Positions 1 through 28,923 of a stretch of 64,000 nt of DNA are shown here, piece after piece. The notes under the pieces were generated by a model. It saw only the letters and a program-made list of their open reading frames with translations, did no database searches and was not told the DNA's origin. Every line of letters begins with the position of its first letter. Within the stretch, counting starts at the first letter, position 1. The stretch is from Candidatus Methanophagaceae archaeon (GTDB lineage: Archaea > Halobacteriota > Syntropharchaeia > Alkanophagales > Methanospirareceae), in contig PQXC01000005.1 of the NCBI GenBank assembly GCA_003194435.1, forward strand, positions 30,110 to 94,109, in the 5' to 3' direction. The translations under genes and the position numbers were made by a program.

Positions 1-1437
1 AGAGAAGAGGGGGATTTCAGGCGCGATTTCTTGAAGAAGGTGGGCAGGCGGATATACAGGGATAAGATGATAGAGGATGACTGGTTGCGAGTGACGGCAT
101 TGGGGGGCTGTCGAGAAGTTGGGAGGAATGCATTCCTGCTTTCTACGCCGGAGACGAGGGTCTTAATTGACTGTGGAGTGAGTGTAGGCTCGGAAGGCAT
201 GCCCTACTTATATGTACCGGAGGTGTCCCCGATAAGCAATCTGGATGCTGTTGTGATAACACATGCGCATCTCGATCATTCGGGTCTTGTGCCACTCCTG
301 TTTCTATACGGTTATGATGGACCGATATACACAACACAGCCGACGAGGGACCTTATGGCTCTTCTTCTGCTTGATTATATAGAGGTCTCAGCGAGAGAGG
401 GTAAGAAGATACCATATAAATCGGCAATGATAAGAGATGCAATAAGACATACGATACCGCTGAAGTATGGTGAGGTGACAGATATCTCGCCCGATGTGAA
501 GTTGACTTTTTACAATGCAGGGCACATATTGGGTTCAGCAATCGCATATTTCCATCTGGGGAATGGTTCTGTATCGCATAACATTGCGTTCACAGGTGAT
601 ATAAAGTATGAACGTACCTTCCTATTTGACCCTGCATTCAATGCTTTTCCCAGGCTGGATACGCTGGTTATTGAATCCACGTATGGTGGTATGAATGATC
701 AACAGCCCTCAAGGCGAGAGGCAGAGAGGAACCTGAAGGACGAGATAGAACGAACGATAAAGCGGGGTGGGAAGGTAATAATACCGGCATTCGCGGTTGG
801 GCGTTCTCAGGAAGTGATGATTGCGCTTGAAGGTATGCAGCTGGATGTGCCGGTGTATTTAGATGGTATGATATGGGAGGCGACATCTGTACATACTGCA
901 TACCCGGAATATCTGAACAGGAGTTTGAAGAATTCTATATTCCAGGGTGAGAATCCTTTCCTATCAGATATCTTCGTGCAGGTGGATGATGCAGATAAGC
1001 GAAAGGAGGTAATAGAGGAGAAAGAGTCCTCAATTATACTCGCTACTTCAGGCATGCTCAATGGTGGACCGGTTCTGGAATACCTGAAGGGACTTGCAGC
1101 CGATGAGAAGAATACACTCATATTCGTTGGTTATCAGGCAGAGGGTACATTAGGGCGGAGGATACAGAAGGGCTGGAATGAGATACAGTTATCGGATGAT
1201 GGTAAGATAAGGAATATAAAGATAGGGATGGATATAAGGACAGTGGATGGCTTTTCAGGTCATTCAGATCGTAACCAGCTGATTGAATTCGTGAAGGGGA
1301 TTCGACCATTGCCTTCAAAGGTGGTATGCATGCATGGTGAGAATAGCAAATGCATAGCACTGGCAAGTGGGATACACAAGAAATTCAATATAGAGACGAC
1401 GGCGCCGATGAATCTGGAGACTCTGAGATTGGTATAA
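1..1437 (+). CDS. aCPSF1 (FttA)-type beta-CASP / metallo-beta-lactamase ribonuclease; 5' end lies outside the window
   Basis: ORF 31..1437, with the frame open back to nt 1 (REEGDFRRDFLKKVGRRIYRD...). Contains the HAHLDHSG MBL motif and a beta-CASP C-terminal half. The '...WLRVTALGGCREVGRN' junction is the linker that follows the KH domains in aCPSF1, so the KH part is upstream of the window. Confidence 0.8.
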   Translation, partial: REEGDFRRDFLKKVGRRIYRDKMIEDDWLRVTALGGCREVGRNAFLLSTPETRVLIDCGVSVGSEGMPYLYVPEVSPISNLDAVVITHAHLDHSGLVPLLFLYGYDGPIYTTQPTRDLMALLLLDYIEVSAREGKKIPYKSAMIRDAIRHTIPLKYGEVTDISPDVKLTFYNAGHILGSAIAYFHLGNGSVSHNIAFTGDIKYERTFLFDPAFNAFPRLDTLVIESTYGGMNDQQPSRREAERNLKDEIERTIKRGGKVIIPAFAVGRSQEVMIALEGMQLDVPVYLDGMIWEATSVHTAYPEYLNRSLKNSIFQGENPFLSDIFVQVDDADKRKEVIEEKESSIILATSGMLNGGPVLEYLKGLAADEKNTLIFVGYQAEGTLGRRIQKGWNEIQLSDDGKIRNIKIGMDIRTVDGFSGHSDRNQLIEFVKGIRPLPSKVVCMHGENSKCIALASGIHKKFNIETTAPMNLETLRLV

Positions 1438-1474
1438 GAAGCTTTAGAAAGAGGAATAAAAGATAAAGGTAAAG

Positions 1475-2311
1475 GTGAGAGAGAAGATGACAACGATAAG
1501 GGAGAGAATGGAGAGGATGAGTATAGGGAAGCGGATAAGGATGGAGAGGATAGTGGACCGGAATAGCGGTAGAAGTGTTATTGTGCCGATGGACCATGGT
1601 GTGACCTCAGGTCCGATATACGGCTTGACGGACATGAAACAGGCAGTGAATGCAATAGCAGAGGGTGGAGCGAATGCGGTTCTTCTCCATAAAGGTATTG
1701 TGATTGCGGGGCATCGGGGCTATGGTAAGGATATAGGGCTTGTGATTCACCTCTCAGCAAGTACCTCGCTGGGTCCAGACCCACTGGCGAAGGTCATGGT
1801 GGCGACGGTAGAAGAAGCGATCAGGCTGGGTGCTGATGCGGTATCAATGCATGTGAATGTGGGTGCGGATAGCGAGCCGGAGATGCTCGAGGAGCTCGGG
1901 GAGACGGCAATGATATGTGAGGAATGGAGCATGCCTCTCCTGGCGATGATGTATCCCAGGGGTAAGAAGGTGAAGAATGAGCATGACCCCGAGATGGTGA
2001 TGCATGTGGCACGTGTAGGTGCAGAGTTAGGTGCTGACATCATCAAGACGAACTATACCGGAGATCCCGATACATTCAAAGATGTGATACAGAGTTGCCC
2101 GGTGCCAGTGATTATAGCTGGCGGACCAAAGGCGAATACGGATGCAGAGGTACTGAAGATGGTGGAGGATGCGATTTCTGCGGGTGCCTCAGGGGTATCA
2201 ATAGGGAGGAATGTCTTTCAACACGAGAATCCAACGAAGATGACAATAGCAATAAGTAAGATAGTGCATGAGGGCATCACGGCTGCAGAGGCGATGGAGA
2301 TGTTGAAGTGA
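1475..2311 (+). CDS. aroA': 2-amino-3,7-dideoxy-D-threo-hept-6-ulosonate (ADH) synthase, class I aldolase DhnA/MJ0400 family
   Basis: 278 aa. Shows '[31 protein letters not shown]...[15 protein letters not shown]...[12 protein letters not shown]...KTNYTGD...IAGGPK' collinear with MJ0400-type ADH synthases. The exact start among several N-terminal Met codons is uncertain. Confidence 0.75.
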
Positions 2312-2340
2312 GATAATGATAATAACCCAATAGCCCTCAA

Positions 2341-3915
2341 ATGGATTCATACAATATTATACTTATATTTTATCTCTTCCTTATATACTGGTTTATTATA
2401 CTATTTCTCGATAAGCAGGGTTTACTGAAGCGCTACAATATCTCTTCATACGGTCCTATTCTACAGATAAGAGCGGTCAGAGGTGAGAGATTACTGGAGA
2501 GGCTGGGTACAGTAAGACGTTTCTGGAGAGCGTACGCCAATATCGGTACTGTTCTGATGATTATGGCGATGGCTTTTATGTTCTTTCTTGTGATTAATGG
2601 CGCATTTACAATATTTATGGTGAGACCGGAGCCAACAGAGTTGAATGAGCCAAGGAACTGGTTGCTTATCCCCGGCTTGAACACTTTTATACCTATGTGT
2701 GCATGGGTAGGCTTTGTAGTTGCGATGATAGTACATGAGTTATCGCATGGGATATTGAGCATTGTGGAGCGAATAAAAGTGAAATCAATGGGGCTTCTGC
2801 TTCTGTTAGTGCCGATAGGAGCATTTACAGAGCCGGATACTGACCAGCTCTTCGGTACGGCATCAGCACATGAGAGGACGCGTATCCTTTCCGCGGGTGT
2901 GATGGGCAATTTCGTCGTTGCTATCGCTGCATTTCTCATCTTCTTCGGTATTCTCTTCTCCGTTCAGCCTGTCAGTGAGAATGTGCTTTATGTTTATGAC
3001 GTAGCCAATGGTAGTCCAGCAGCAGAATATGGTATAGAGCCACATTCGTTCATCACGGCGATGGATGGAGAAGGGGGAGTGAGCGTAGAAGAGCTGAACA
3101 GCAGACTGGAGAAGGGTAAGACTGCTTATCTCACCATTCTGGATAGAAAGGGCAATAAGAAGGAGATAGCGGTAGAAGGTGAAGTGAATGAGGGCGTAAC
3201 AGTGGTGTTTGTGGAGAAAGGCAAGCCAGCAGCGAAAGCAGGTATCAAGGAGGGTATGACCATAATAAAGATGGATAACAGGAGTATAAGGAGTTATGAT
3301 GATTTCTTCTCTTTCATGAACGATACAGTGGTGGGCGAGGAGATAGAAGTGTGGACGAAGAGAGGAGAAGTATTTGAGATTAAGTTAGAGGAATCGCCAT
3401 ATTATGCGAACCGTGGTTATCTGGGCGTTGATGTTGCCAATTGTGCGCTGGGCATGAGAGTGTTGGAATTTCCAACGAGAACTTACCTGGAGTACCTCCG
3501 GGGCATACCTCGTATGCTCTTCAAATCGCCTGCCAGCTTGCTGTTATTGATGACTTTGCCTGTGCTACCACTCAGCATGGGAGGTTTCAGCACTTTTAAT
3601 CCATTGTTATCGCATTTATACACGCCTGTGGGGATGGCATCCGTTTTTGGTGCTGGTATCTTCTCAATTGCCGATGTGCTGTTCTGGATAGCATGGATAA
3701 ATTTCTATGTGGGCTTATTCAACTGTCTGCCAATGTACCCCTTGGATGGATATTATGTATTCAAGGAGGTATTGAATCCAATGCTGAGGATGGTGATAAA
3801 GGAAGAATCGAAGAAAGAACTGGTTTTAAAGACCATCGCTATCTTCACTGCTGTTATCATCTTTTTATCAATTGTATTCATGTTAGTTGCTCCTTTCGTT
3901 TTTGAGCTCCTCTAA
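2341..3915 (+). CDS. Site-2 protease family (M50) membrane metalloprotease with PDZ domains
   Basis: 524 aa and polytopic. Has an HELSHG (HExxH) motif in a TM helix, two PDZ-like stretches (GSPAAEYGI..., GKPAAKAGIKEGM...) and a C-terminal 'NCLPMYPLDG' motif. Confidence 0.8.
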   Translation: MDSYNIILIFYLFLIYWFIILFLDKQGLLKRYNISSYGPILQIRAVRGERLLERLGTVRRFWRAYANIGTVLMIMAMAFMFFLVINGAFTIFMVRPEPTELNEPRNWLLIPGLNTFIPMCAWVGFVVAMIVHELSHGILSIVERIKVKSMGLLLLLVPIGAFTEPDTDQLFGTASAHERTRILSAGVMGNFVVAIAAFLIFFGILFSVQPVSENVLYVYDVANGSPAAEYGIEPHSFITAMDGEGGVSVEELNSRLEKGKTAYLTILDRKGNKKEIAVEGEVNEGVTVVFVEKGKPAAKAGIKEGMTIIKMDNRSIRSYDDFFSFMNDTVVGEEIEVWTKRGEVFEIKLEESPYYANRGYLGVDVANCALGMRVLEFPTRTYLEYLRGIPRMLFKSPASLLLLMTLPVLPLSMGGFSTFNPLLSHLYTPVGMASVFGAGIFSIADVLFWIAWINFYVGLFNCLPMYPLDGYYVFKEVLNPMLRMVIKEESKKELVLKTIAIFTAVIIFLSIVFMLVAPFVFELL

Positions 3916-3967
3916 TGCCTTATCTTTATCTTTGTCTTTATCATTATCTTCCTTACGAGGCGGAGAG

Positions 3968-4432
3968 ATGGACGACAATTTTGATGCCTTGATTGCGGAT
4001 ATAGAGCGAAAGAAGTCGGAGGAAGAACGTAGGATATATAGTGAGAGGACACTAAAAGAGGCGTACAATCCACGAAACGTGGGTAAGCTGGCGGATCCGA
4101 GCGGTCGTGCTCGAATCACAGGTCCGTGTGGCGATACAATGCAGATAGATATAAGAGTGGAAGCGGGAAGGATCAGCGATTGTAAATTCATTACTGATGG
4201 CTGTGGCGCTTCAATCGCATGTGGGAGTGTGGTAACCGAGCTTGCGAAGGGTGAGCGTATAGAGAAGGCGTTAGAAGTAACAGAGAAGGATGTACTGAGG
4301 GTCTTGGGCGGGTTACCGGCGGAAAACGTCCATTGCGCTGCACTGGCGGTGAAGACATTAAGAGCAGCTATCGGTGATTATCAATGCAGGTCACGAAATC
4401 GCAGTGCTTCCGAACCGGAAATTAGCGCATAA
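3968..4432 (+). CDS. NifU/IscU-like Fe-S cluster scaffold domain protein
   Basis: Taken from the internal ATG at 3968 of ORF 3887..4432; the upstream part is low-complexity. Shows 'NPRNVGKLADPSGRARITGPCGDTMQIDIRV...FITDGCGASIACGS...VHCAALAVKTLRAAI', i.e. the three conserved Cys of IscU/NifU-N. Confidence 0.7.
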   Translation: MDDNFDALIADIERKKSEEERRIYSERTLKEAYNPRNVGKLADPSGRARITGPCGDTMQIDIRVEAGRISDCKFITDGCGASIACGSVVTELAKGERIEKALEVTEKDVLRVLGGLPAENVHCAALAVKTLRAAIGDYQCRSRNRSASEPEISA

Positions 4433-4947
4433 AAAGGTATGAAAAGAGCTAAAACAGTTCTTTCAGGACCGCCTTCAGAGCGGCTATAAGCCAGCGTTAG
4501 AGGTAGGAGATGCGGCAAAAGTTTCACGTTTTAATCGCATCCGAAAAGCAGCAGTGCTGAACTCTCTAATTCATCCAACTCCTCCTCCTCTTCTTCCTCT
4601 TTCTCCTTATATCTTTTATCTTTGTGCATTGCACCTCCTTTCTTCTCTGGCACCTCCCCTGGTCCTGGTAATTCCATATGAATTTCAAAATCTCTAACTC
4701 TCATAAATTTTTGCCTCAATACTAGGACACTACATAGTAACATCTAGTAACATCTTGAACCTCAAAACATTGTTGAAGAAGCAGCATTTATTGCTTTTAA
4801 AAGAAGAGAAACAGGTAACAAAAATAACAAAGAATGATATAATGAAAGCGGCTGATAAGGCACCAAATTCGGTTACACCTGAGGAGGTAGAGCAAATAGA
4901 GGAATGGGCAAAGGAACGGCGCATGAAAACATGAGTATAGGTTCCTA

Positions 4948-5202
4948 TTGACAAAGACAAGCGTAACAGGCGTAAGCAGATGCGGGTTCTATAAGCGGCT
5001 CGGGCAATCGAAGTCCGGACAGGTGAATGCTATACCAGACATGGACAAATGCAGCGGATGGAATCTGGATAGAAGCCTTAACACAGAACAGGCGTTAAAG
5101 GACGTATACAACAAAAAGAAGCTATATTCTGCCATAGGGTACCGCTCTCCCATGGGCTTCGAGAAGGAAAAGGAGAGGAAAGTTTTAAATACTGTTTCTT
5201 AA
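4948..5202 (+). pseudogene. C-terminal remnant of an rve/IS3-IS481-type integrase-core transposase
   Basis: The 84-aa ORF ends '...ALKDVYNKKKLYSAIGYRSPMGFEKE', the typical C-terminal 'YN..R.HSALGY.SP..FE' tail of DDE (rve) transposases. No catalytic core precedes it. Confidence 0.5.
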
Positions 5203-5286
5203 CTATATACTAACCAGGGTGCACTCCACAGATAAGGGGCGGGGAAGATGATTAAAATTAAAGATGGAGAAGTTCGACCAGAGGGA

Positions 5287-5367
5287 TGTATATGCGAACT
5301 TAACTTCGGATATAATGCTAAAACGGTGGTATATACGAACTCGAGTTCGGATATACCGAAGTTGTCC
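5287..5367 (+). repeat. Degenerate or short attC-like site (attC0): two tandem mini-hairpins ending in GTTGTCC
   Basis: The hairpins are TATATGCGAA/TTCGGATATA (about 5289-5314) and GGTATATACGAAC-tcga-GTTCGGATATACC (5328-5357), each with one mismatch. GTTGTCC follows at 5361-5367. The arm sequences are related to those of the full-length copies, but the central region is missing. Confidence 0.5.
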
Positions 5368-5410
5368 GAAATCAGCCGAAGTGCCTTAAATTTAAAGAGG
5401 TGATATAAGT

Positions 5411-6505
5411 ATGAAATTGAATGATGAGCAAATAAAATTGTTGCTTGATAAATTAGTAGCGTCAGAAGAAGCACAAGCATGGGTAAAGCAGAGGTGGGAA
5501 GACCACAAACGATGGAAAGAATGGATCGATCCTGACAAATTGGATACTCTTTCAGATGATGAGTTAAAAAGCAGATTTTTAGAATACTTTAACGAAGGCG
5601 CGGGAAGGCATCCATTTAATGCTGTTTATAGAGACAGAATAGTTAGAGACATCAAGAAATTTAGAGAAGTAATGAAGTTTTTGCTTGATGAATCCATACC
5701 AATAAAGAGAAGGTTAAATGAGATTCTAAACAGAGACGGAAGGTTTCATATTGAAGGAATTGGAAAAGGTCTTGCCACTTCAATTTTAATGGATTTAGAC
5801 CCACAAAAATATGCTACATGGAACAACAAAACAAATATGGGATTGGAAGCTTTGGGTTTAACCCCTCAATTTGTAAGGGGGGATGATTGGGGAACAAGAT
5901 ATGAAAAAGTTATGAAAATTATCAAACATATTAAGGATTTAAAGCCAGAATTTAGCTTCTTAGAGGTTGACCATTTTTTGCATATAGTTTCTGCAACAGA
6001 AGAAGGTAAAGAAGCTGTTAGGGCATTAATTGAGGGTAAAGAAATATCCTCTGAAGTTTCGGAGACAATGAGTCAAATATCAAAAGAAAAAGAGAGTATG
6101 GAATTCGTGATGGAGAAATATTTAGAGGAATTCATCGAGGAAAATTTTGACAAAATAGATTTCGGAGCAAAACTTGAGTTATATCAAGACGAAGAAAATA
6201 CTGGGAGACAATATCCTACTCCAGTTGGTAATATTGATTTACTAGCAATGGATAGAAACAAGAAAGAGTTTGTAGTCATAGAGTTAAAGAAAGGGAGGAG
6301 CAGTGATGTTGTAGTAGGACAGATTTTAAGATATATGGGATGGGTAAAGGAAAATTTAGCGGTTAATGATTACGACCAATATAATATAAGAGGAATTATC
6401 ATATCTAAAGAGAAAGATGATAGATTGGAATACGCTCTAAAAATGCTACAAAACGTAAATGTATTCTTATATTCGGTTTCCTTTGAGTTAAGGAGGGTGA
6501 TATAG
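5411..6505 (+). CDS. Cassette 1: HhH-like N-terminal domain fused to a NucS/DUF91-like PD-(D/E)XK nuclease domain
   Basis: 364 aa. The C-terminus 'GNIDLLAMDRNKKEFVVIELKKGRSSDVVVGQILRYMGW' is the D...E-x-K plus GQ.LRYMGW signature of NucS-type nuclease domains. The N-terminal half contains 'IEGIGKGLATSILMDLDPQKYATWN', a helix-hairpin-helix-like element. A GAGGTGAT RBS precedes the ATG. Confidence 0.65.
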   Translation: MKLNDEQIKLLLDKLVASEEAQAWVKQRWEDHKRWKEWIDPDKLDTLSDDELKSRFLEYFNEGAGRHPFNAVYRDRIVRDIKKFREVMKFLLDESIPIKRRLNEILNRDGRFHIEGIGKGLATSILMDLDPQKYATWNNKTNMGLEALGLTPQFVRGDDWGTRYEKVMKIIKHIKDLKPEFSFLEVDHFLHIVSATEEGKEAVRALIEGKEISSEVSETMSQISKEKESMEFVMEKYLEEFIEENFDKIDFGAKLELYQDEENTGRQYPTPVGNIDLLAMDRNKKEFVVIELKKGRSSDVVVGQILRYMGWVKENLAVNDYDQYNIRGIIISKEKDDRLEYALKMLQNVNVFLYSVSFELRRVI

Positions 6506-6552
6506 ATGGCACTTCGGCTGAATCTCCGCTTCGCTTCGGTGCTATCGCACTC

Positions 6553-6640
6553 GGACAACAGGCGGATATGTGGCTTCGCCTTCGGCTACGCCCAAATTTC
6601 GCCTTACGGCGAAACTTCACATATCCCCAGAACGTTGTGC
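6553..6640 (+). repeat. attC-like site 1
   Basis: R'' is GGACAAC (6553-6559). Arms are GGATATGTG (6564-6572) and CACATATCC (6618-6626). The inner hairpin is TTTCGCC-ttac-GGCGAAA (6597-6614). R' is GTTGTGC (6634-6640). Confidence 0.65.
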
Positions 6641-6666
6641 GAAATCAATAATAAGGAGGATAAGAA

Positions 6667-7381
6667 ATGAAGACTACTGAAAATAAAGAAAAGCCAATAA
6701 TTTTTGTATCACATATAGCAGAAGAAAAAGAAGTTGCTATTGCTTTTAAAGAACTCTTAGAGAATAGTTTTCTAGGAATGGTTGAAGTATTTGTTTCCTC
6801 GGATGAGAAAAGTATCGAAATGGGGCAGAAATGGTTAGAAAGAATAACTGAGGCATTAAAAGCTTGTGCTGTCAAAGTAATAATATGTAGCCCTAAATCC
6901 GTAAACAAGCCTTGGATAAAAGCTACCAATACCGCTAAATATGCTTCAAGCAGGAGTTGCTACAGAAGCATCAAGCCTTAAATTAATATTTTCTGTAATT
7001 GCAAAAGTTTTAGGAGCAAAAGAGCCGAAAGTAGACTTTTCAGAATTCATTAGCAAAATTAGAGAGTTTGAAAAGATTTATACTTACTGGGATGATATAA
7101 ACAGAGTTTTTGAAGAAATACATCGTATAAATCCACAGATAATAGAAGCCCTAAAATCTCGAAAGAATATTCAAATTCAACTTACAGAACCTCAAATAAA
7201 TATGTTTGAAAACATATTTCGACAACTAGAGGAGAAAAACATCTTAAGATTTAGGAGAATAGGTGGAGCTACTATAACACCAATAGGAATGTATATTAAT
7301 TGCGTGATAGAAATTCTACCAGATTTCAAAAAGGTGGTTTCCGATGGACATTTCATATTTTGCAGGGATTTTAAAGCATGA
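6667..7381 (+). pseudogene. Cassette 2: TIR-domain protein gene split into two overlapping frames (6667..6981 and 6941..7381)
   Basis: ORF1 reads 'KPIIFVSHIAEEKEVAIAFKELLE...VFVSSDEKSIEMGQKWLERITEALKACAVKVIICSPKSVNKPWI', a TIR fold up to the 'S.W' strand. It then runs into an out-of-frame tail. The +1 frame continues '(K)LPIPLNMLQAGVATEASSLKLIF...'. The segment that normally carries the catalytic Glu after 'PWI' appears to be missing. Confidence 0.55.
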
Positions 7382-7385
7382 CTTC

Positions 7386-7461
7386 GCACAATAAACGGGT
7401 ATACGGTTCGCTTCGCTCACCCAAACCCTTGCGGGCTTCGTATACCCGCAAACCGTTATAT
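7386..7461 (+). repeat. attC-like site 2
   Basis: It starts 5 nt after the stop of the TIR ORF. R'' is GCACAAT (7386-7392). Arms are GGGTATACG (7397-7405) and CGTATACCC (7439-7447). R' is GTTATAT (7455-7461). Confidence 0.65.
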
Positions 7462-7525
7462 GAAATGCGAGCGGAGGCAAAAATCTTTAGAAAAAGTAAA
7501 TCAAAAATAATAAAAGAGGAGAAAT

Positions 7526-8644
7526 ATGAGTAAATTTATGTTTAAGATTGGAGAGAAGATATTTCAAATAGAAGATCTTGGTGAGTCCGTGAACTCTCAG
7601 TTTTTGAGACTACATGAGAGCCATTTTTCTGGACGCGGTTTTGACCTCACTAAGTTTAGAAAAGAGGCATTAGATTTTTTCGATCATAGCGATGGCAATT
7701 ATCACGCTCACGATGAATTTTTTAATAATTTTACCATTATTTGGCGATCCTTTTTAAATCAAAGGCGTTTTAAAAACGCAGAGTATCTCTGGGACTTTGC
7801 TTTAAATATCGCCTATGATTGGGAAAACAAAAATCAAAACAAAAGAATCCATAAGGGAACTCCATACTATTTCTGGGGTGTGACTTGTATCTTGAATGGG
7901 GATTTGGAAAAAGGGTTTTTGCTAATGCACCAAGCATTGGAAGAGGACAAAAAGACTCATCAAACCAAAACTCCTAAAACTCCCGCATATTCTTTTGTTA
8001 CTCTGGATTATGAAAATCAGAACCAGTTCTTTAGACCAAAAGTGAGAGAAATTGCAAAATTCCTTGATGAAAATTATTTGAACAGTTACCGTTCTTCGAG
8101 GGGAGGGACATTAACTTTATCTGACTTTAAAACAAAATTCTTGGAAGAATCTGCTTTACAAGAAGTAGTTTTTTACTTTATTTTTGAATTATTCCGTCTT
8201 AAAAAGTTGCTTGAAGAGATAAATCAAAGATTAACACAGAATGTCTTCAGCTCTTTGCTACAAGCAAACACAATATTTACTCTTTGTCTCATCATAGATA
8301 ATGTTATTAAGCAAAAAAATCCCAATCAATGGAAATTTTCAGAACACCTGAAATTTTTATCTTCTAGATCCTCATTAAACCTTAATGATCAAAAGATTGG
8401 AGAATTAAATGGAGCATTCACAAACAATTTTTCCAATACGCTACAAAAATTATTAAGTTCACAATACCAATTTCAAGATGTAACTACACCGCAACCTATT
8501 GAGGAAGATTTAGCAATTACCTATGGTTTTAGAAATTTTGGAGCTCATAAAGTAGAAGATCAACCTGTTGTTTATCAAAACTTTGATGAAATATCGAGGA
8601 GGATTTTAAATGCTTTATTTTTCTCCGTCGAAAAATTGTACTAA
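7526..8644 (+). CDS. Cassette 3: all-alpha hypothetical protein with a C-terminal R-x4-H (HEPN-like) motif
   Basis: 372 aa, preceded by a GAGGAG RBS. No family is recognised by eye. 'AITYGFRNFGAHKVED' near the C-terminus matches the RNxxxH form of the HEPN RNase motif. Confidence 0.55.
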   Translation: MSKFMFKIGEKIFQIEDLGESVNSQFLRLHESHFSGRGFDLTKFRKEALDFFDHSDGNYHAHDEFFNNFTIIWRSFLNQRRFKNAEYLWDFALNIAYDWENKNQNKRIHKGTPYYFWGVTCILNGDLEKGFLLMHQALEEDKKTHQTKTPKTPAYSFVTLDYENQNQFFRPKVREIAKFLDENYLNSYRSSRGGTLTLSDFKTKFLEESALQEVVFYFIFELFRLKKLLEEINQRLTQNVFSSLLQANTIFTLCLIIDNVIKQKNPNQWKFSEHLKFLSSRSSLNLNDQKIGELNGAFTNNFSNTLQKLLSSQYQFQDVTTPQPIEEDLAITYGFRNFGAHKVEDQPVVYQNFDEISRRILNALFFSVEKLY

Positions 8645-9065
8645 GAATGTCTCCGCTCGCACTCTGCGGCTTCCTACGGAAGCCTTGCCTCGCCTTCTGC
8701 TCGGTCATATAACACGGGCTATACGGCTCACTCCGTTCGCCCAAATACCGCCAAAGGCGGAACTTCGTATAGCCCGAATACGTTATCGGAAATGGCGGGA
8801 AATAAATGGTTGAAATCCATGCAAAGATACAGCAAACTATATAAAGAATACCAGCATGGTCAAATTGATAAGGAATATAGCCCATAATTGCCATAACAAT
8901 TCCCACCGGGACACCTACCATAAAAACCCAGCCGAAACAGAAAACCATAAGTAATGCACCATAAATATGGTAGGCATAGCTTATTTTTAGCAGCTCTAAT
9001 GATCCAATACCGAAGATGATTAGGTCGCATATATACTCTTTTTTCATCATAATTTTCCCCAGCAT
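8529..9065 (-). CDS. Possible small membrane protein; 3' end doubtful
   Basis: The first ~90 codons are hydrophobic (GALLMVFCFGWVFMVGVPVGIVMAIMGY...). The ORF then reads through attC-like site 3 and into the antisense of the previous gene, so only the 5' part (about 8790-9065) is credible. Confidence 0.25.
   Translation of the reverse strand: MLGKIMMKKEYICDLIIFGIGSLELLKISYAYHIYGALLMVFCFGWVFMVGVPVGIVMAIMGYIPYQFDHAGILYIVCCIFAWISTIYFPPFPITYSGYTKFRLWRYLGERSEPYSPCYMTEQKARQGFRRKPQSASGDILSTIFRRRKIKHLKSSSIFHQSFDKQQVDLLLYELQNF
8707..8788 (+). repeat. attC-like site 3
   Basis: R'' is ATATAAC (8707-8713). Arms are GGGCTATACG (8716-8725) and CGTATAGCCC (8766-8775). The inner hairpin is CCGCC-aaa-GGCGG. 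R' is GTTATCG (8782-8788). Confidence 0.65.
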
Positions 9066-9301
9066 CTATCAATCAAATATCCAAGTCCAGCACCGAACAT
9101 GATACCAATAATTGGTGCTAACAAGAAGAATACAATATGACTATTCCAGATATCTGCGATAAAAAATGCAAGAGTGGTTGGCAAACCAAAAGTATATCTT
9201 ATCAGAGGATGATTAAGCCACACCCCACCCGAAAGGATTATTATACTTGTCAATCCCCAAATCCCGCCGATTATTGATCCAATTTTCCATTTTTTCATCA
9301 T
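9047..9301 (-). CDS. Small hydrophobic membrane protein (hypothetical)
   Basis: 84 aa with 2-3 predicted TM stretches (IGSIIGGIWGLTSIIILSGG..., LAFFIADIW..., FFLLAPIIGIMFGAGLGYL). It lies inside cassette 4, opposite in orientation to the other cassette ORFs. Confidence 0.4.
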   Translation of the reverse strand: MMKKWKIGSIIGGIWGLTSIIILSGGVWLNHPLIRYTFGLPTTLAFFIADIWNSHIVFFLLAPIIGIMFGAGLGYLIDRCWGKL

Positions 9302-9309
9302 AATTTATT

Positions 9310-10860
9310 ATACCTACTTTACTTTGGTATGAAAATACTTCGAACTTCCTTATCTATAAAACCTTTGAGACTACATATCCACACCCCTCCAGTTCTCTTA
9401 TCAACCTTAGTTCCCTATTTTTTGACTTCCTTCCATTAACAGCTTCAGCGCCTACATCCTGATAAAGCTCGCCTGTTTTTAATACACGATAGATCTCGAT
9501 CAATATCTGGTGTCCGACCGCGACCAAAGCTCGATTTTTACCACGCCTTCTGGCAATATTGTGGTACATAGCGCTTAAAGCAGTGCCTTTGGTTCTCGAT
9601 GCAGCCCACGCCGCCTCTGTCAAGGTGGCTTTGAGGTAATTATTTCCTCTTCTCGTTTTTCCGCTTTTTTTCTTTCCCGCGCTCTCATTATTGCCAGGAC
9701 ACATCGCAGCCCAGGAAGAGAGATGCGCCTCATCCGGAAACCTTGACATATCAACCCCGATCTCAGCGATAACTGAAGCTGCCGAGACTTCTTTGATGCC
9801 CGTAACAGATTGGATAGCCCTGAATTCCTTCTCGTACGGTCGCAGCTTTCGCTGAATCTCCTCATCAATCTCTCTTATCCGTTCAACAATGCAATCGATG
9901 TGGGCTAAATGCTGTTTTAGCAGAAATCGGTGGTGATCAGTTACATTCCCATTAAGGGCTTTCACTAATTGATTCACTTTCCTCTTGAGCTTCCCCTTCG
10001 CCATTTCTGCAATTTCATCCACGGAGAGCGTGTCTTTCTCCAGCAATGCACCGATCATATTCAGGGAGGAGACCCCGAAGACCTTTGACACAACAGACGA
10101 GATTTTGATATTTGCATCTTCCAGGACCTTTTGAACTCGATTTTTCTCTGCGGTCATCGCTTCAACAAGTTTTCTTCGCGTTCGGGTAAGATCGCGCAAC
10201 TCTCTGATTTCTCGAGGCGGAATAAAGCTCCCTGAAATCAATCCATTTCTGAACAAATGGGCAATCCACTGGCAGTCTTTGACGTCGGTCTTCCTTCCTG
10301 GGACGTTTTTGATGTGCTGTGCATTTGCAAGAACTACTTCAAAATCGTCCTCAAGTATATTGAAGATAGGTTTCCAGTATATGCCTGTGCTCTCCATTGC
10401 TACTGCGGTCACACCGTATTCCTTCAGCCATTCCTTCAACGTTCTGAGGTCGTCGGTCATCGTTGAAAACTTCCTGATCTCGAACTTCGGTGGCTTATCC
10501 AATGGTCCATGTGCAATACACGCCATCACCATCGACTTATGGACATCAAGTCCACAACAACTCTTCAATATGGGCTGCATGTTACACCTCCTCGAGACGA
10601 GCGAAGCAACATTAGAATAGGATAAGTTTGGTACTCGTGCCCCCAAAGGGGCAACATTCATGGGTTCTAAGAGTTGCCTGGGTCAGTTTCTTTTGCGGGG
10701 TTTCATTACAATGAACCACCAGAAAAAATCGACCAATATCGCTCGTCTCATGATAGTATATATAGGTGAAATTTAATTCTATTCATATTCACCCATTTTC
10801 ATGCTCATGGGTGTCCCCTTGGGTCATGGAGGTTTCTTTTTAATGAGATTTGGAAGCAAG
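9310..10860 (-). mobile_element. IS110-family insertion sequence (boundaries approximate)
   Basis: A single transposase gene with ~200-280 bp of non-coding leader, including the hairpin GCCCC-caaa-GGGGC at about 10638-10651. IS110 elements lack clear inverted repeats, so the ends cannot be fixed from one copy. Confidence 0.35.
9354..10580 (-). CDS. IS110-family (DEDD) transposase
   Basis: The start is taken at 'MQPILKSCCGLDVHKSMV...' (internal Met of ORF 9354..10661). Shows 'GLDVHK', 'AMESTGIYW', '...VTGIKEVSAASVIAEIGVDMSRFPDEAHLSSWAAMCPGNNESAGKKKSGKTRRGNNYLK', typical of IS110/IS1111 transposases. Confidence 0.85.
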   Translation of the reverse strand: MQPILKSCCGLDVHKSMVMACIAHGPLDKPPKFEIRKFSTMTDDLRTLKEWLKEYGVTAVAMESTGIYWKPIFNILEDDFEVVLANAQHIKNVPGRKTDVKDCQWIAHLFRNGLISGSFIPPREIRELRDLTRTRRKLVEAMTAEKNRVQKVLEDANIKISSVVSKVFGVSSLNMIGALLEKDTLSVDEIAEMAKGKLKRKVNQLVKALNGNVTDHHRFLLKQHLAHIDCIVERIREIDEEIQRKLRPYEKEFRAIQSVTGIKEVSAASVIAEIGVDMSRFPDEAHLSSWAAMCPGNNESAGKKKSGKTRRGNNYLKATLTEAAWAASRTKGTALSAMYHNIARRRGKNRALVAVGHQILIEIYRVLKTGELYQDVGAEAVNGRKSKNRELRLIRELEGCGYVVSKVL

Positions 10861-10871
10861 AGATATCAAAG

Positions 10872-11177
10872 ATGAAAGAAACGTTGATGATTGTTGATGG
10901 ACATGTTGGAAAAGTATTTTGTAGAACAGGCACGTTAGAAGAAGTTTTGTATGAGAAGAGAAGACCGTATATTATTCAGGCAAGTAAAATGAGACCATGG
11001 ATAGAAGAAATTGTTTCAAGATTTGAAAAAATCCCGTTTTATGTTGACAACGGAGCATTTTATCTTTTTGAAGATGGGCATTGTAGCGATTTAGAACCAA
11101 ATTGTAAAGATTGCCCCGTAAATAAACTCTGCAAGAAATATCTAAAATGGACTGCATATCAAATATGGGAGGAATAG
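10872..11177 (+). CDS. EndoIII/HhH-GPD-like C-terminal fragment with a [4Fe-4S] cluster loop
   Basis: 101 aa. 'VDGHVGKVFCRTG' resembles the post-HhH 'VDTHV.RV.NR.G' segment. 'CSDLEPNCKDCPVNKLC' is an exact C-x6-C-x2-C-x5-C FCL motif. The HhH-GPD N-terminal half is absent, and the IS110 lies immediately upstream. Confidence 0.5.
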   Translation: MKETLMIVDGHVGKVFCRTGTLEEVLYEKRRPYIIQASKMRPWIEEIVSRFEKIPFYVDNGAFYLFEDGHCSDLEPNCKDCPVNKLCKKYLKWTAYQIWEE

Positions 11178-11193
11178 AGATGTCCGCCACTTC

Positions 11194-11275
11194 CGATAAC
11201 AGCAGACATACGGCTACGCTTCGCTCCGCTAAAATTCGGCAAAGCCGAACTTCGTATGTCCGCAAAACGTTAGAC
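11194..11275 (+). repeat. attC-like site 4 (last in the array)
   Basis: R'' is CGATAAC (11194-11200). Arms are GACATACG (11205-11212) and CGTATGTC (11253-11260). The inner hairpin is TTCGGC-aaa-GCCGAA. R' is GTTAGAC (11269-11275). Confidence 0.65.
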
Positions 11276-11365
11276 AACATAGCCTTAGAAGGGGAATGAT
11301 ATTCCGCAGTACGACAAAAAAGAGGTAACGTACAGATGGAACTTAACTTCATTTCCACTTCATTT

Positions 11366-12898
11366 CTATTTCTCGCTTCGTGGTAATAGCCAGGCTCTGC
11401 GTAGCCAGTCTATATCCGGCTGATACAGGTCTCTTATGTCACTCAGACCCAGGCTGATCATGGCTAAACGTCCGATACCAAGTCCCCAGGCTAATACGGG
11501 ATATTTTACGCCTATTGGATGAGTGACCTCCTCTCTGAATATGCCAGCACCACCCAGCTCTATCCAGCCCCTCTCTGTGTATACTTCAACCTCCACTGAT
11601 GGTTCGGTATAGGGAAAATATCCGGGTCGGAATCGTATAGAAGGGAACCCCATCTTCCGATAGAATACTGCGAGACACCCGAGCAAATTGGCAAACGTCA
11701 CGTCGCGGTCCATGATAATACCTTCCAGCTGGTCGAATTCTGGTATGTGGGTCGGGTCAATGGTCTCGCGGCGATACACGCGCCCGATGCAAAAGACCTT
11801 AACAGGTGGCTCGGGATGTGAAGCCAGGTATTTCACAGTAACTGCGGTGGTATGAGTCCGTAGAAGCAGCTCCTCACCCTGCTCTCTCCTCCATTCACCA
11901 CCCCAACCCGATGAATTTAATGGTCCCCCGTGCTCATGCATCTCCTTTACACGTTTTATCAACTCCTCAGAAGCGTCTATAGGCCTCTTCAAGCCAAGAT
12001 AGAAAGTATCCTGCATCTCCCGTGCAGGATGGTCCTGCGGCACAAATAACGCATCGAAATTCCAGAACGCGCTCTGAACGTGTTCACCCTTTATCTCTAT
12101 GAACCCCATCTCGGTGAAGATTTTTCTCATGCGGTCCAGAATCCGCTGATAAGGGTGCAACTTAGCTGCGAATATCTCTCGCCCCGATATATCCACATCA
12201 TAACGTTTGAATTTGAACCTCCGCCCTTTCCATGTCCTTATAATCTCAGGTGTTAACTGTGCTATCTCCTCCTCAATAGATAACCCACGCTCAAGGAGCT
12301 CCATACCCGCATCTGTGATGCCTATTCTCCGTTCTACCCGGGTAGAACTCACCACCAGTCGCCGTGAAATCAACTGTGTTATGACCTCCTGTTTGGTCTC
12401 CGGCTTCAATTCCGACTGCCCTTCTGCCAGGGCGAGAGAACGCAGTATTTCCTCATCAGCGCCATAAGGGGGTTCAGCATTGACAGTGGGTATTACACGT
12501 CCATTATCAATATACGCCCAGTTCTTCCGCAGCAGCCAGTTTATTGCTATATTCACACGTTTACCGAGAGCATGTTTCAGGTATTCTACCGATGTTGCTC
12601 CCTCATGCTGTAATAATAAACGAAGTGCTTTACGTTCTGGTAGTGCATCCGCAGCATACTCCTCACCCTCTGGTGTCAAACGATAATAAATCCTTCGCTG
12701 CTCTTTAACCACACAAAGCCCTTTCTTTGCGAGTGTAAACGCTGCTTGCATAACTGCGTCTTCGTTTGTACCTGTGAGTTCAGCCAGTACCGCTGGGGCA
12801 TACTCATACTCACGCACACGCGCACCATCACCGCGCTGGCGCTGAAACGCGAGTAAAAGCCTCTTCTCCGCTGCTGTTAGCTCAGAATCTACCGCCAT
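11366..12898 (-). CDS. pheS: Phenylalanine--tRNA ligase alpha subunit (archaeal type)
   Basis: 510 aa with N-terminal winged-helix repeats and a class II core ('FWNFDALFVPQDHPAREMQDTFY', 'LRTHTT', 'GRVYRRE', 'GAGIFREEV'). Confidence 0.9.
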   Translation of the reverse strand: MAVDSELTAAEKRLLLAFQRQRGDGARVREYEYAPAVLAELTGTNEDAVMQAAFTLAKKGLCVVKEQRRIYYRLTPEGEEYAADALPERKALRLLLQHEGATSVEYLKHALGKRVNIAINWLLRKNWAYIDNGRVIPTVNAEPPYGADEEILRSLALAEGQSELKPETKQEVITQLISRRLVVSSTRVERRIGITDAGMELLERGLSIEEEIAQLTPEIIRTWKGRRFKFKRYDVDISGREIFAAKLHPYQRILDRMRKIFTEMGFIEIKGEHVQSAFWNFDALFVPQDHPAREMQDTFYLGLKRPIDASEELIKRVKEMHEHGGPLNSSGWGGEWRREQGEELLLRTHTTAVTVKYLASHPEPPVKVFCIGRVYRRETIDPTHIPEFDQLEGIIMDRDVTFANLLGCLAVFYRKMGFPSIRFRPGYFPYTEPSVEVEVYTERGWIELGGAGIFREEVTHPIGVKYPVLAWGLGIGRLAMISLGLSDIRDLYQPDIDWLRRAWLLPRSEK

Positions 12899-18792: not shown

Positions 18793-21513
18793 TCAAAAAT
18801 CAACCCTTACTGTCTTTCCTTGTATCACCTCTTCTTCCGTTATCTTCACTTCTTTCTCCATGTCCCACACTATCGTTTTGTTCTCTACATGCCCTGCTTT
18901 TATCTTATACGGGGTTGCAAAGACATCGAAATTCGTGCCTCCTTCTATCGTGCCTTCCGTTGAATATGGCACGATAAACTCATAGGAGCCATTACTCTTA
19001 TTTACTATTTTTCTTTGTGAGTATGTGAAGCCCCTGCCCCTGTTTGTAGTTACATCAGTCGTTATTGCAACTACCGATGCGTTATGCACTCTACCTTCTA
19101 TTCTCGCTCCTTTTACGTATTCAAAAACCTTTACCGAGCTCAGGGGAGAGATGAACGAAGGAGTCCACTGAATCCTATCCTTATCAATCTTAATTTTATG
19201 ATGAAGTTTCTGTACAGTATTATTTGCGCTCGTATAATTCGCTCTGCGGTAGTAATGCCACCCCTCTACCTTCTTCGTCACGGTATTCTGAACAACGTAT
19301 GGGATAATATAAGAAGAAGATTCGTATACCAATCTGTAATGATGTAACGGATCTGTGTGAAAAGGTGTAATTGGGATAGAAGACTGTACTTCGAGATCCT
19401 CTCCCTCTCGTTCCACTTCTCTCCCATCGAAGATGTGTAGTCTTGTCACCATCGTATTGAAGTAGTTCTCATCCGGAACAAAGCCGATCCCTGTATCTCT
19501 ATCTCCTTCACGATCAGATTTTGCCCACATGATTATACCCCTGTATTTGTTACCAGAGAAACCCATCGCATCAGCCATCATGTAGTCCGTTATCACGTAT
19601 CTAACATCAAGAGCATCGGCAACTTTATTCGCTTCTGATTCATTTATCGCAGCGAAGAAAGTACATGCACCCGGGCTATTGTCCTGATACGGTCCCCCAA
19701 TCCCCTGCTGGAAATTATTAGCGACAGGAATCCGGTGAGCGATGTAAGTGATCCAGTTACCGTAGTCCCACCAGTTCATTACAGAATAGGCAGATTCAGG
19801 GTAGTTATAAGTCGCATCTTCGGGCGGTGTTTCATACAGCGCATAATAATCAACGCCGGTATCAGGTGTATTCGCCCGCATCCAGGTTAGAGACTCATAC
19901 CAGTCTTGGTCAGGACCCTGATTATACTTTGCTGCCATTGTCAGAGAATTCATTAGCGGGAGAGCGAAGAAAGAGAAGAAGATAACGAAGTAAATTGCGA
20001 TGGCATCGGCACGTAAAAACCTGCTCATACTATTCGCTCTATTCGCTCGCTCTTTATTTGATTTCAACCGCTTCGTCGTCTTCTTGCTTCTGCTTCTGCT
20101 CCTTTTACCCTTTATCACATTCTCATGGTATCCACTTTCCTCCTGCTTGAGGACTGCAAATTCTATAAACCGATAAGAGAGGTATCCACAGAGGATGGCA
20201 ACATTGATTGCGTAATATGCAGCAAAGCGTTTCTGCCCGAAACATGCGAGAAGAATTGTAAGACTCCACACGATGAGAAGAATCTCTTCTGCTTTCCATT
20301 CCTTCGTGATATTATAACAGATGAGTGCTATAGCAGCGAAAGCGAAGAAGAAAGCAGTGGTGAACCAGGCAATGATCTCACTCCATTGCAGTGGTTGAAC
20401 CTCGCCTATGGTCAAAAAAGTTTTTGACGGTGCAAACACGTATAGTAGTGGCATGGTTAGCATAGAGTATAAAGATGGCTTAAAGACACGTAAAACAAGA
20501 AGGGATATAGTAATGATGGCTATAATTGCAACAGGAAATGCAGCAGGGTGTATTCTTTTTCTGTTCAATAAATGAGAGAACATACGTAAAACGAGAAGGA
20601 GAGAGATGCCGAGGATAAGGATTATGACATGGAATGGAGAAAGGAATCCATAAGAGAATACAGGTATGGCTATCATAGCTGCTGGAATGACAAATACTGG
20701 CATGCTGATGATGAAAAGGGGATCACTATCCTCTCCCCTGAGATGATTGATAATATACTGAATCAATATGTAGACAAGCAGAATAAGAACAAAGAGGGGA
20801 GCACCCATCCATGTGAGGAGATAGCATCCGAAACAAATACCAGCTAAAGAGGAATAAGTGAGTGGTGCTCGTAAAGAACCCCAGTTTCTGGTTAAAATCG
20901 AATGCACAGTTATTTCTTTTTGTTTTTGTACGCTCTTCCCATTCCAATTCCTTAGAGCGAGGATAAAGAGAAGCATGACAAGTGTGCTGAGAAGGGTCTC
21001 CATGGCATGGTGATCGGTATATCCTAAGAGAGAACGTGATAGGAACTGACCGGGGAGGATAGCGATTAAAGCAGCAGAAAGAAGTCCGGTACCACGGTTA
21101 TATATCTCCTTTCCGATGAGATACACAGGAAAGATAGTGAGAACACCCAGAATTGCAGGATACCACGCACCTATCACTTCTATTCCATGCTGACCCAGTG
21201 AGGAAAGAGGGGCTCCAAGCCCTATTAGCCATATGAGAGAAGCAAGCGAGAGGTCGAAGAGAGGAGTACCAAAAGGGTTGTATGCGCCATGTGGATAAGC
21301 AGTGAAAGGATCAAAGTAGATACGAAAAGGGAAGTGATGCAGTGTGTTTTCAACAAGCCGCATGTTATACCAGGGATCAGCACCATCAAATCTCACGAAC
21401 GAGCCAGTAAAAACGGTATTATATGGGATAACAACGCGGATATAGAGCGACAGGAAGAATAAGAAAGTCAATACAAAGCCACAGAGCATGGAGGTCTTTT
21501 CAATCCTTCTCAT
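18793..21513 (-). CDS. aglB: Archaeal oligosaccharyltransferase (STT3 family)
   Basis: 906 aa with a polytopic N-terminal half. Has a 'WWDYGNWI' (WWDYG) motif and a large C-terminal soluble domain. Confidence 0.85.
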   Translation of the reverse strand: MRRIEKTSMLCGFVLTFLFFLSLYIRVVIPYNTVFTGSFVRFDGADPWYNMRLVENTLHHFPFRIYFDPFTAYPHGAYNPFGTPLFDLSLASLIWLIGLGAPLSSLGQHGIEVIGAWYPAILGVLTIFPVYLIGKEIYNRGTGLLSAALIAILPGQFLSRSLLGYTDHHAMETLLSTLVMLLFILALRNWNGKSVQKQKEITVHSILTRNWGSLRAPLTYSSLAGICFGCYLLTWMGAPLFVLILLVYILIQYIINHLRGEDSDPLFIISMPVFVIPAAMIAIPVFSYGFLSPFHVIILILGISLLLVLRMFSHLLNRKRIHPAAFPVAIIAIITISLLVLRVFKPSLYSMLTMPLLYVFAPSKTFLTIGEVQPLQWSEIIAWFTTAFFFAFAAIALICYNITKEWKAEEILLIVWSLTILLACFGQKRFAAYYAINVAILCGYLSYRFIEFAVLKQEESGYHENVIKGKRSRSRSKKTTKRLKSNKERANRANSMSRFLRADAIAIYFVIFFSFFALPLMNSLTMAAKYNQGPDQDWYESLTWMRANTPDTGVDYYALYETPPEDATYNYPESAYSVMNWWDYGNWITYIAHRIPVANNFQQGIGGPYQDNSPGACTFFAAINESEANKVADALDVRYVITDYMMADAMGFSGNKYRGIIMWAKSDREGDRDTGIGFVPDENYFNTMVTRLHIFDGREVEREGEDLEVQSSIPITPFHTDPLHHYRLVYESSSYIIPYVVQNTVTKKVEGWHYYRRANYTSANNTVQKLHHKIKIDKDRIQWTPSFISPLSSVKVFEYVKGARIEGRVHNASVVAITTDVTTNRGRGFTYSQRKIVNKSNGSYEFIVPYSTEGTIEGGTNFDVFATPYKIKAGHVENKTIVWDMEKEVKITEEEVIQGKTVRVDF

Positions 21514-22727: not shown

Positions 22728-23272
22728 TGAAAATCGCATACGTTTACGACGCCGTCTATCCCTAGATAAAAGGCGGCGATGAGAAGCGAATCCATGAGAT
22801 TTCAAAAAGGTTAGTTGAATGTGGGCATGAAGTTCATTGGTTTGGAATAAAGTGGTGGGAGGGCGAAAGCACAATACAACAGAACGGCGTTTATCTGCAT
22901 GGCGTTTGCGAGCCAAAGGAACTGTATGTTGACAGGAGAAGGTCAATTCCTGAGGAAAAAGTAAGCAGCGAAGAGCTTGAGGAAATTATAGGTATAGCAA
23001 AGGAGATAGAAAGTATCGATAAATTAGTTTCAATCCTCATACCCACAAAGAACAACGGATATATACTTGAGAAAAGCCTTGCATCAATTCAGAATCAGGA
23101 CTATCCAAAGGACAGATACGAAGTAATCATCGTGGATGGTCATTCTACCGATGATACCGTAGAAATAGCAGAAAAATACGGATGCAAGGTTGTGTATAAA
23201 TGCGTTGGTGCGGTTTTATCTTTTGTTTGTTGTACAAGGTTTAACTGGAGAGGAGTATTATTTATTTTTTAG
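22727..23272 (+). pseudogene. Chimeric pseudogene: duplicated 5' end of the GT4 gene (with a premature TAG) fused to a GT2 N-terminal fragment
   Basis: 22727-22947 is ~90% identical to 24039-24259. Codon 13 is TAG where the intact copy has TGG (Trp). The same frame continues into '...VSILIPTKNNGYILEKSLASIQNQDYPKDRYEVIIVDGHSTDDTVEIAEKYGCKVVY', a GT2 N-terminus, and then ends. Confidence 0.7.
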
Positions 23273-28908: not shown

Positions 28909-28923
28909 GAATGAGAAGATGGA

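Follow-up and report, generated by a model that had tools for sequence, protein, structure and literature searches.

Three single-gene cassettes encoding candidate defence effectors in a polymorphic integron-type array of an ANME-1 archaeon

Archaeal integrons have been described by Ghaly et al. (2022, Sci Adv, PMC9668308); according to that paper, they are mostly clusters of attC sites lacking integron-integrases (CALINs), and toxin-antitoxin (TA) and restriction-modification (R-M) cassettes are prevalent in them. Data S1 of the same paper includes two metagenome-assembled genomes (MAGs) of anaerobic methanotrophic archaea of group 1 (ANME-1/Methanophagales), GCA_013374555.1, with seven attC sites and one IntI, and GCA_017883965.1, while Data S6 includes TIR-like and HEPN cassettes. 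In bacteria, phage-defence cassettes of mobile integrons (bacteriophage-resistance integron cassettes, BRiCs) have been tested experimentally (Kieffer et al., bioRxiv 10.1101/2024.07.02.601719), and chromosomal integrons have been portrayed as defence "biobanks" (as cited in PMC12614218). Here we analyze a related locus in a 64,000-nt stretch of contig PQXC01000005.1 from a Candidatus Methanophagaceae archaeon. We refer to the whole stretch as the window; coordinates are those of the window unless another contig is named, and L-numbers denote other contigs that were compared with it. Positions 5314-11279 are a four-cassette integron-type array with five attC sites. The three genes studied occupy its first three cassettes, downstream of a NifU-like gene on a Methanophagales (ANME-1) chromosome, and encode a PD-(D/E)XK nuclease (protein 1), a TIR-domain protein (gene 2), and a helical protein with an R-N-x3-H motif (protein 3). 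We read them as unrelated single-gene, effector-type proteins for antiviral or abortive-infection immunity, carried in a mobile array, and put the probability of this reading at about 0.6.

ANME-1 archaea drive the anaerobic oxidation of methane and have no member in pure culture. Few recognisable defence systems have been reported in them. The window array resembles the published archaeal CALINs in having tandem single-gene cassettes and attC hairpins with AAC/GTT cores, on an archaeal chromosome and with no adjacent IntI. It differs in that the accessible part of PMC9668308 has no description of this array, of its attC subtype, or of its three cargo families, and in that population-level gain and loss of a cassette at one chromosomal site is directly visible here. 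With the BRiCs and biobanks it shares compact single-gene candidates in promoter-poor, shufflable cassettes, and the concept of a low-cost defence island. The BRiCs, however, are bacterial and experimentally tested, whereas the window array is archaeal, known from sequence alone, and likened to the 13 BRiCs by concept rather than by sequence. Because archaeal integrons (including those of ANME-1), defence-type cassettes, and integron-borne phage defence have all been published, the conceptual advance is small. A polymorphic array at a fixed site shows that ANME-1 archaea draw on the same shuffle-and-store mechanism as bacteria, and part of the cargo, at or above about 90% identity, is also found on contigs binned to Spirochaetes and Aenigmatarchaeota MAGs. 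The array yields three compact candidate genes, one of them from a large family without database annotation; this family, that of protein 3, is the most original element.

The array is laid out as listed below. The scores are from a covariance model, R1, that was trained on the same five attC sites, so the window values (37.6-94 bits, E=5e-7 to 9e-22) are circular.

5314-5371, plus strand: attC-like site E0, short (58 nt), R' core GTTGTCC at 5361-5367; start of the array; R1 37.6 bits, E=5e-7; hairpin z=-3.2
5362-6634, plus strand: cassette 1, 1273 bp, from the G/TT crossover of E0 to that of E1
6549-6644, plus strand: attC site E1, R'' GGACAAC at 6553-6559, R' GTTGTGC at 6634-6640; R1 86.7 bits, E=7e-20
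6635-7455, plus strand: cassette 2, 821 bp here and 895 bp in the intact allele; 821-nt spacing of repeat D1
7382-7465, plus strand: attC site E2, R' GTTATAT at 7455-7461; R1 79.3 bits, E=6e-18
7456-8782, plus strand: cassette 3, 1327 bp; 1327-nt spacing of repeat D1
8703-8792, plus strand: attC site E3, R' GTTATCG at 8782-8788; R1 94 bits, E=9e-22
8783-11269, plus strand: cassette 4, 2487 bp; same array, beyond the three-gene interval
11190-11279, plus strand: attC site E4, R' GTTAGAC at 11269-11275; R1 88.3 bits, E=3e-20; end of the array

Cassettes 1 to 3 consist of one gene and its own attC site apiece. A copy of repeat family D1 follows each gene, at spacings of 821, 1327, and 2487 nt. 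An alignment of the five attC copies revealed an invariant AAC core on the left (R'') and an invariant GTT core on the right (R'), and between them an inner inverted repeat that is conserved and a centre that varies. All five fold as imperfect hairpins (z from -1.7 to -4.3); the bottom strand is the better folder for three of the four long sites, and that of E1 folds at -22.8 kcal/mol (z=-4.3). Independent support for the attC assignment comes from the R1 search of the 64 kb, which returned the five sites and no further matches, and from R1's detection of attC sites in further contigs, outside the training set. The strongest cassette signature is complementarity between the bases at which a cassette starts and the R'' end of the attC site belonging to it. 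In cassette 1, positions 5372-5385 and 6508-6521 are 100% complementary, and GTTGTCC at 5361 pairs with GGACAAC at 6553; in cassette 4, positions 8782-8798 and 11184-11200 are 94% complementary. Only units that were each once circular, with closure at G/TT, would be expected to pair in this way. The GC content is 0.35-0.38 in the array and 0.44-0.48 on either side of it.

Inspection of the window's open reading frames (ORFs) of at least about 190 aa revealed no integrase-like ORF in these 64 kb of the 123-kb contig, and hence no intI adjacent to the array, which is thus a CALIN; at the same site in L067, no Phage_integrase match was found within 10 kb on either side. Each of the three genes has a strong ribosome-binding site directly upstream. 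Scans of the array for bacterial promoters and terminators, which are ill-suited to archaea, gave no more matches than chance, and no tRNA genes or Rfam families were found in the window. The sequence-only reading had set these cassettes against bacterial chromosomal integrons, a setting that did not hold. The array is flanked upstream by archaeal core genes for an aCPSF-type beta-CASP nuclease, a class I aldolase, a site-2 protease, and the NifU-like protein, and downstream by those for PheRS alpha (pheS, minus strand, the next gene after E4), PdxT, aldehyde:ferredoxin oxidoreductase, AglB, the V-type ATPase A and B subunits, and others. Positions 1-4465 are 92.5% identical to a contig of the Methanophagales MAG GCA_026134005.1 (L067), so the host is an ANME-1 archaeon rather than a bacterium. 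An exact look-up of protein 3 among assemblies gave no record, nor did the window's core proteins, and the assignment comes indirectly from this flank.

Comparison with related arrays showed that each cassette moves alone, by attC recombination at the G/TT crossover. L067 carries an array at the same chromosomal site as that of the window, without cassette 1. In L067 and L069, window position 5374 is joined directly to 6634 via the shared core, cassette 1 being absent exactly at the attC crossover, and E0 is conserved upstream of the TIR cassette. The same TIR cassette, attC-flanked, is present in L067, L068, L069, and L070. The identical 262-aa TIR protein was found in four different neighbour contexts (the window, L067, L068, and L069), always flanked by attC sites; the TIR gene has other neighbours again in L065, and a 79%-identical copy lies in another Halobacteriota array amid MNT/HEPN, HicA, and ThsB_TIR genes. 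A 78%-identical relative of protein 3 is encoded in L009, in an unrelated array, by a single-gene cassette between attC matches and beside a MazF cassette; the attC-flanked cassette 3 homologue there is 85% identical. Protein 1 recurs at 90-93% identity in L079, between attC sites of the same class, on a contig binned to a Spirochaetes MAG, and in L080-L082, with such a site upstream only; the protein is also recorded in an Aenigmatarchaeota MAG. For these last copies, the alternatives are exchange of cassettes across domains and mis-binning of the short contigs concerned.

We conclude that the three genes are independent modules, as the sequence-only reading had proposed from their separate cassettes, because related arrays lack cassette 1 precisely at the crossover and because the TIR and protein 3 genes occur beside different neighbours. 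Both the cassette anatomy and this independence are firmly supported. The array behaves as a variable store: close relatives differ in the cassettes that they hold, and the cassettes that have been inactivated are not the same from genome to genome.

The product of cassette 1 is encoded as follows.

5411-6505, plus strand: protein 1, 364 aa; N-terminal region of about 200 aa with a GIGKG motif, C-terminal PD-(D/E)XK nuclease of the NucS_C/YhcG_C class

Residues 265-354 matched Pfam YhcG_C (E=9.1e-9, 35.8 bits, cut-off 32.5) and NucS_C (E=7.4e-8, 32.9 bits, cut-off 24). The D...ExK and QxxxY motifs are present, and D276, E291, K293, Q304, and Y308 are invariant in 50 relatives; given this invariance of the catalytic residues, the nuclease site is intact. 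The nuclease predicted by the sequence-only reading was thereby confirmed, and the helix-hairpin-helix-like domain that it placed at the N terminus was not: searches of residues 1-200 against Pfam, NCBIfam, and PDB profiles gave no match to any family, helix-hairpin-helix or other. The N-terminal region does contain the motif IEGIGKGLATSILMDLD (G-I-G-K-G), with G116, G118, S124, L126, and D128 invariant, which would fit a helix-hairpin-helix; the label is derived from this motif and is unproven. Residues 197-361 matched the PADLOC model PDC-S02 (PDLC04824) with E=3e-46, over profile positions 148-306 of 308 only; like protein 1, PDC-S02 is a single-gene candidate. The family of protein 1 numbers at least 1,909 relatives, patchily distributed over both domains. 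Some lie beside R-M, TA, and Nmad3 genes in several contigs; one forms a pair with Nmad3, with PIN, Ku, and LigD genes nearby, and others are in arrays with MNT/HepT and a methyltransferase.

Gene 2 is present in the window in two pieces.

6667-6981, plus strand: N-terminal fragment of the TIR gene, 104 aa, out of frame after residue 84; TIR_2 E=2.6e-10
6918-6921, plus strand: junction of a 74-nt deletion with AAA microhomology, which removes codons 85-109, including that of the invariant Glu87; located by blastn of L001-L003 against the window
6941-7381, plus strand: C-terminal fragment of the TIR gene, 146 aa, equal to residues 117-262 of the intact protein and including its helical C-terminal domain

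Three metagenome contigs (L001-L003, one of them from Guaymas Basin sediment) share protein 1 with the window and have an unbroken gene 2. These contigs are otherwise about 99.9% identical to the window, and the 262-aa protein that they encode consists of a TIR_2 domain and a helical domain of about 135 aa. The blocks W83-W92, which includes E87, and C102-G105 are invariant in 36 relatives. The catalytic-type Glu of the TIR domain is thus present in the intact allele and absent from the frameshifted window copy, which bears out the earlier description of cassette 2 as a disrupted TIR gene. The family gave at least 793 matches, including isolates of Leptospira, Clostridium, and Sulfurimonas, and the phage-borne family phrog_29177 matched the protein with E=3e-34.

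PADLOC returned partial, TIR-domain matches only, the best to TIR-TM (E=6e-12), a system of different architecture from the cassette 2 protein, with weaker ones to PDC-S66, spbK, and ThsB (about 1e-3 for ThsB). The protein has in common with SpbK and ThsB a TIR_2-type domain, a catalytic-type Glu in a W-x3-E motif, and one extra, possibly sensory domain; it differs from SpbK in its domain order, which is reversed relative to the match of the spbK model, the TIR domain being N-terminal here. Thoeris was rejected, in agreement with the sequence-only reading: the neighbours of the TIR gene are the nuclease and protein 3 genes, and no ThsA-type Pfam domain was found beside it in the window array or in L065-L070. 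PADLOC likewise assigned no named multi-gene system, as had been anticipated. A one-protein TIR sensor-effector would, we infer, be the best analogy.

Cassette 3 encodes a complete protein.

7526-8644, plus strand: protein 3, 372 aa; N-terminal beta-hairpin, TPR-like helical half, and C-terminal helical domain with R336-N337-x3-H341

Protein 3 had been described as an orphan, all-alpha protein with an RNxxxH motif. It is no orphan: a first search gave 321 matches, and the family comprises 1,084 representative clusters at E<=1e-3, a lower bound with clusters defined at 50% identity, with relatives at 56 genome loci, drawn from numerous phyla of Archaea and Bacteria. The other two parts of the description stood. 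The AlphaFold2 model (predicted local distance difference test score, 94.8) has a beta-hairpin and then helices only, and the motif is conserved among 308 relatives, down to 18% identity: R336 in all 305 ungapped sequences, N337 in 302 of 305, and H341 in 302 of 303. It lies about 30 residues from the C terminus and, the R being followed by a polar residue, is of the Rx4-6H class. The TPR-like half has a second invariant cluster, H109-K110-G111, H135, and E140-D141, with D141 present in 308 of 308 relatives.

Searches for similarity to known families were carried out at several levels. No Pfam, PADLOC, NCBIfam, or PHROG model matched protein 3, and its family profile gave zero matches to PDB sequences at E<=10. 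With Foldseek, the full-length model gave only weak TPR matches in the PDB (E>=0.03, template-modelling (TM) score about 0.2-0.27) and nothing among viral structures, while in Pfam searches of ten very divergent members, only single TPR repeats were found, below threshold; ten members with extensions had no fused domain. The model of residues 165-372 gave nothing in the PDB at E<1. Its best matches by TM score were MNT-HEPN toxins (7ae2/7ae6/7ae8), which account for 9 of the 25 chains listed, at a target-normalised TM score of 0.44-0.54. An hhalign comparison against one HEPN protein of L065 yielded no signal. Protein 3 thus has in common with MNT-HEPN and Abi-type HEPN toxins an R-N-x3-H motif in an all-helical domain. 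It differs from them in being much larger, in its fused TPR-like half with the H-K-G/H/E-D cluster, and in having no MNT partner and no profile similarity. That it is HEPN-like, as had been suggested, is plausible, with odds that we would set near even; the motif was upheld, and the fold found weak support.

The neighbourhoods of protein 3 relatives were examined at about 50 of the 56 loci. An all-against-all BLAST of 299 neighbours found no conserved partner gene. Genes within two positions include those for BREX, pAgo, GmrSD/SspE-like proteins, a type IV restriction enzyme, MazF, integrases, and transposases, and in L006 the protein 3 gene directly follows a type II restriction enzyme and its methyltransferase in one operon. 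PADLOC families numbered 231 among these close neighbours and 132 among genes at least six positions away, a crude control that compares family counts only.

The three proteins suggest mechanisms that would be distinct. Protein 1 may be a stand-alone DNA endonuclease whose N-terminal DNA-binding or sensor domain steers the PD-(D/E)XK site (D276, E291, K293) to foreign DNA, acting like a methylase-less, type IV-style restriction enzyme. In the intact TIR protein, the C-terminal helical domain would sense infection and trigger cleavage of NAD+ via Glu87, as in SpbK-like TIR proteins. In protein 3, the invariant R-N-x3-H may form an RNase site, probably upon dimerisation, that would be kept off until a trigger binds the repeat domain. 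We regard it as possible, but doubtful, that protein 3 founds an unrecognised and widespread family of single-gene immune effectors, in which a TPR-like sensor controls a HEPN-type RNase and whose cassette travels between Archaea and Bacteria.

Given these properties, it would be reasonable to call the array a defence reservoir. Several observations weigh against doing so, and against the immune function proposed for its cassettes. The only match to a defence database is that of PDC-S02 to the nuclease half of protein 1; the N-terminal half differs from this model, since the first 147 model positions are unmatched. PDC-S02 is itself an unvalidated "guilt-by-embedding" candidate, a representative of which gave E. 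coli B no protection from T4, T5, or T7 in a cold-seep study. Relatives of protein 1 in Terriglobia hold a stable position among metabolic genes. The window copy of the TIR gene is a pseudogene. For protein 3, no sequence profile backs the HEPN assignment, and the Foldseek matches (E>1, TM score about 0.5) are non-significant. None of the readings considered here accounts for the second invariant cluster, which could mean a different chemistry. The association of protein 3 relatives with defence genes, which the sequence-only reading had proposed to look for, was found as an excess of about twofold, which is modest and crude. Because no integrase was seen in the window, mobility in this genome at the present day is deduced solely from polymorphism in the population. 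The roles of all three proteins are predictions from sequence.

The inactivation of cassettes in different genomes also counts against an immune function, and is the main argument for the rival that survives best, in which the cassettes are decaying, currently useless cargo of an integrase-less array, unexpressed or unselected and drifting to pseudogenes. The TIR gene has its 74-bp frameshifting deletion in the window. In L067, an insertion of sequence resembling the insertion sequence (IS) IS3, at 11645-11808, which is an inverted copy of window positions 5096-5228 at 75.6% identity, cuts the protein 3 gene short after residue 240; in L069, the same gene has a 1-nt frameshift. Inactivation is reciprocal, the TIR gene being intact and the protein 3 gene broken in L067 (10935-11663) and L069 (1693-2807), and the opposite holding in the window. 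This pattern fits relaxed selection on a store of costly or unselected genes. Cassette 4 holds an IS110 element and a glycosylase remnant, and neither an integrase nor an obvious common promoter was found in the window. Against idle cargo, proteins 1 and 3 are full-length here and retain every invariant residue, three independent metagenome contigs encode protein 1 at 100% identity, and the strong ribosome-binding site upstream of each gene has been kept. The decay is, moreover, compatible with a defence origin, because loss of costly immune effectors is typical of defence genes. We therefore consider idle cargo unlikely, and the immune reading the better account.

A second rival, that the nuclease, NADase, and RNase are selfish, addiction-type toxins that stabilise the array or its cassettes and have no antiviral role, is less likely still. 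Among annotated archaeal and bacterial cassettes, TA modules form the most frequent class (PMC9668308), related arrays contain MazF, HicA, and MNT/HEPN-HepT genes, and all three domains are potentially toxic. However, cassettes 1-3 contain no antitoxin-sized partner ORF, the relatives of protein 3 have no conserved neighbour, and, unlike classic type II toxins, the proteins are large (262-372 aa) and have additional, sensor-like domains.

A housekeeping role in repair for protein 1, as a NucS/EndoMS nuclease, with the cluster as ordinary chromosomal content, is very improbable. The NucS_C match, a weak profile match to P. abyssi NucS (2vld, E=9e-4), and the names of relatives in several databases ("endonuclease NucS") point that way, and protein 1 shares with NucS/EndoMS a C-terminal RecB-like PD-(D/E)XK core with D...ExK and QxxxY. 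Only this core aligns to P. abyssi NucS, however; the N-terminal domain is unrelated to that of NucS, which protein 1 lacks. Its equivalog scores are far below the cut-offs (NF003270, 38.8 bits versus 216; NF002876, 22.6 versus 252), and its gene is a low-GC, attC-bounded cassette, mobile and patchy rather than core, and absent from the closest relative's genome. NucS was rejected on this evidence; of the housekeeping families that the sequence-only reading had named as a possible refutation, this one is excluded, and some protein 1 relatives do lie among housekeeping genes. Equally improbable, one cooperating operon of nuclease, TIR, and HEPN-like proteins would suit the shared orientation, the short intergenic gaps, and the contiguity of the trio in the window and L001, and was rejected on presence/absence data, as each gene has its own attC site, cassette 1 is missing in L067 and L069, L068 and L065 have the TIR gene beside other neighbours, and protein 3 is accompanied by MazF and an unrelated gene in L009 and by no conserved neighbour at about 50 of 56 loci.

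Cassette 4 and the upstream edge of the array contain further ORFs. Those of cassette 4 are as follows.

9354-10661, minus strand: IS110-family transposase; Pfam DEDD_Tnp_IS110 E=1e-27, Transposase_20 E=3e-21
10872-11177, plus strand: glycosylase-like ORF, 101 aa, before the last attC site; TIGR01084 mutY E=6e-4
9047-9301 and about 8800-9065, minus strand: two small tandem membrane-protein ORFs, both beginning with the same 17-nt sequence (repeat D16, copies 251 nt apart)

The transposase lies inside cassette 4, and therefore an insertion sequence has landed in the array. The glycosylase-like ORF has a weak match to the iron-sulfur cluster loop part of MutY/EndoIII, with a C-x7-C-x2-C-x5-C motif, and is probably the remnant of a glycosylase cassette. 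The frame of the second membrane-protein ORF continues through E3 into the end of the protein 3 gene, and the extent given for it is approximate. Just upstream of the array, an 84-aa ORF (4948-5202, plus strand) had no Pfam match, and by eye its C-terminal end resembles that of IS3-family (rve) transposases; it overlaps positions 5096-5228, the stretch whose inverted copy interrupts the protein 3 gene of L067. Between the NifU-like gene and the array, a 59-aa ORF (4755-4934, plus strand) matched the Vps4 C-terminal oligomerisation domain (E=2.6e-5) and seems to be an isolated piece left from a gene for an AAA ATPase.

Elsewhere in the window, a long low-GC stretch (0.28-0.42) extends over about 23000-42600 and adjoins an oligosaccharyltransferase-like ORF at 18793-21513. 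Its ORFs were judged by eye to be glycosyltransferase-, sugar-nucleotide-, and ABC-transporter-like, and it probably represents a variable island of surface-glycan genes. At 53162-56329 and 56692-59823 (both minus strand), two surface proteins of about 1,050 aa share a nearly identical C-terminal module, PRPRVAGGGGGGG...DGDGITDIEEMLQGTDP...CDPNPECAACKALMP, with a Pro/Thr-rich linker and a membrane anchor. Repeated dockerin-like "GDMNGDGEV.F.DV" motifs are found at the ends of two neighbouring proteins, in a region that includes 59851-62403 (minus strand).

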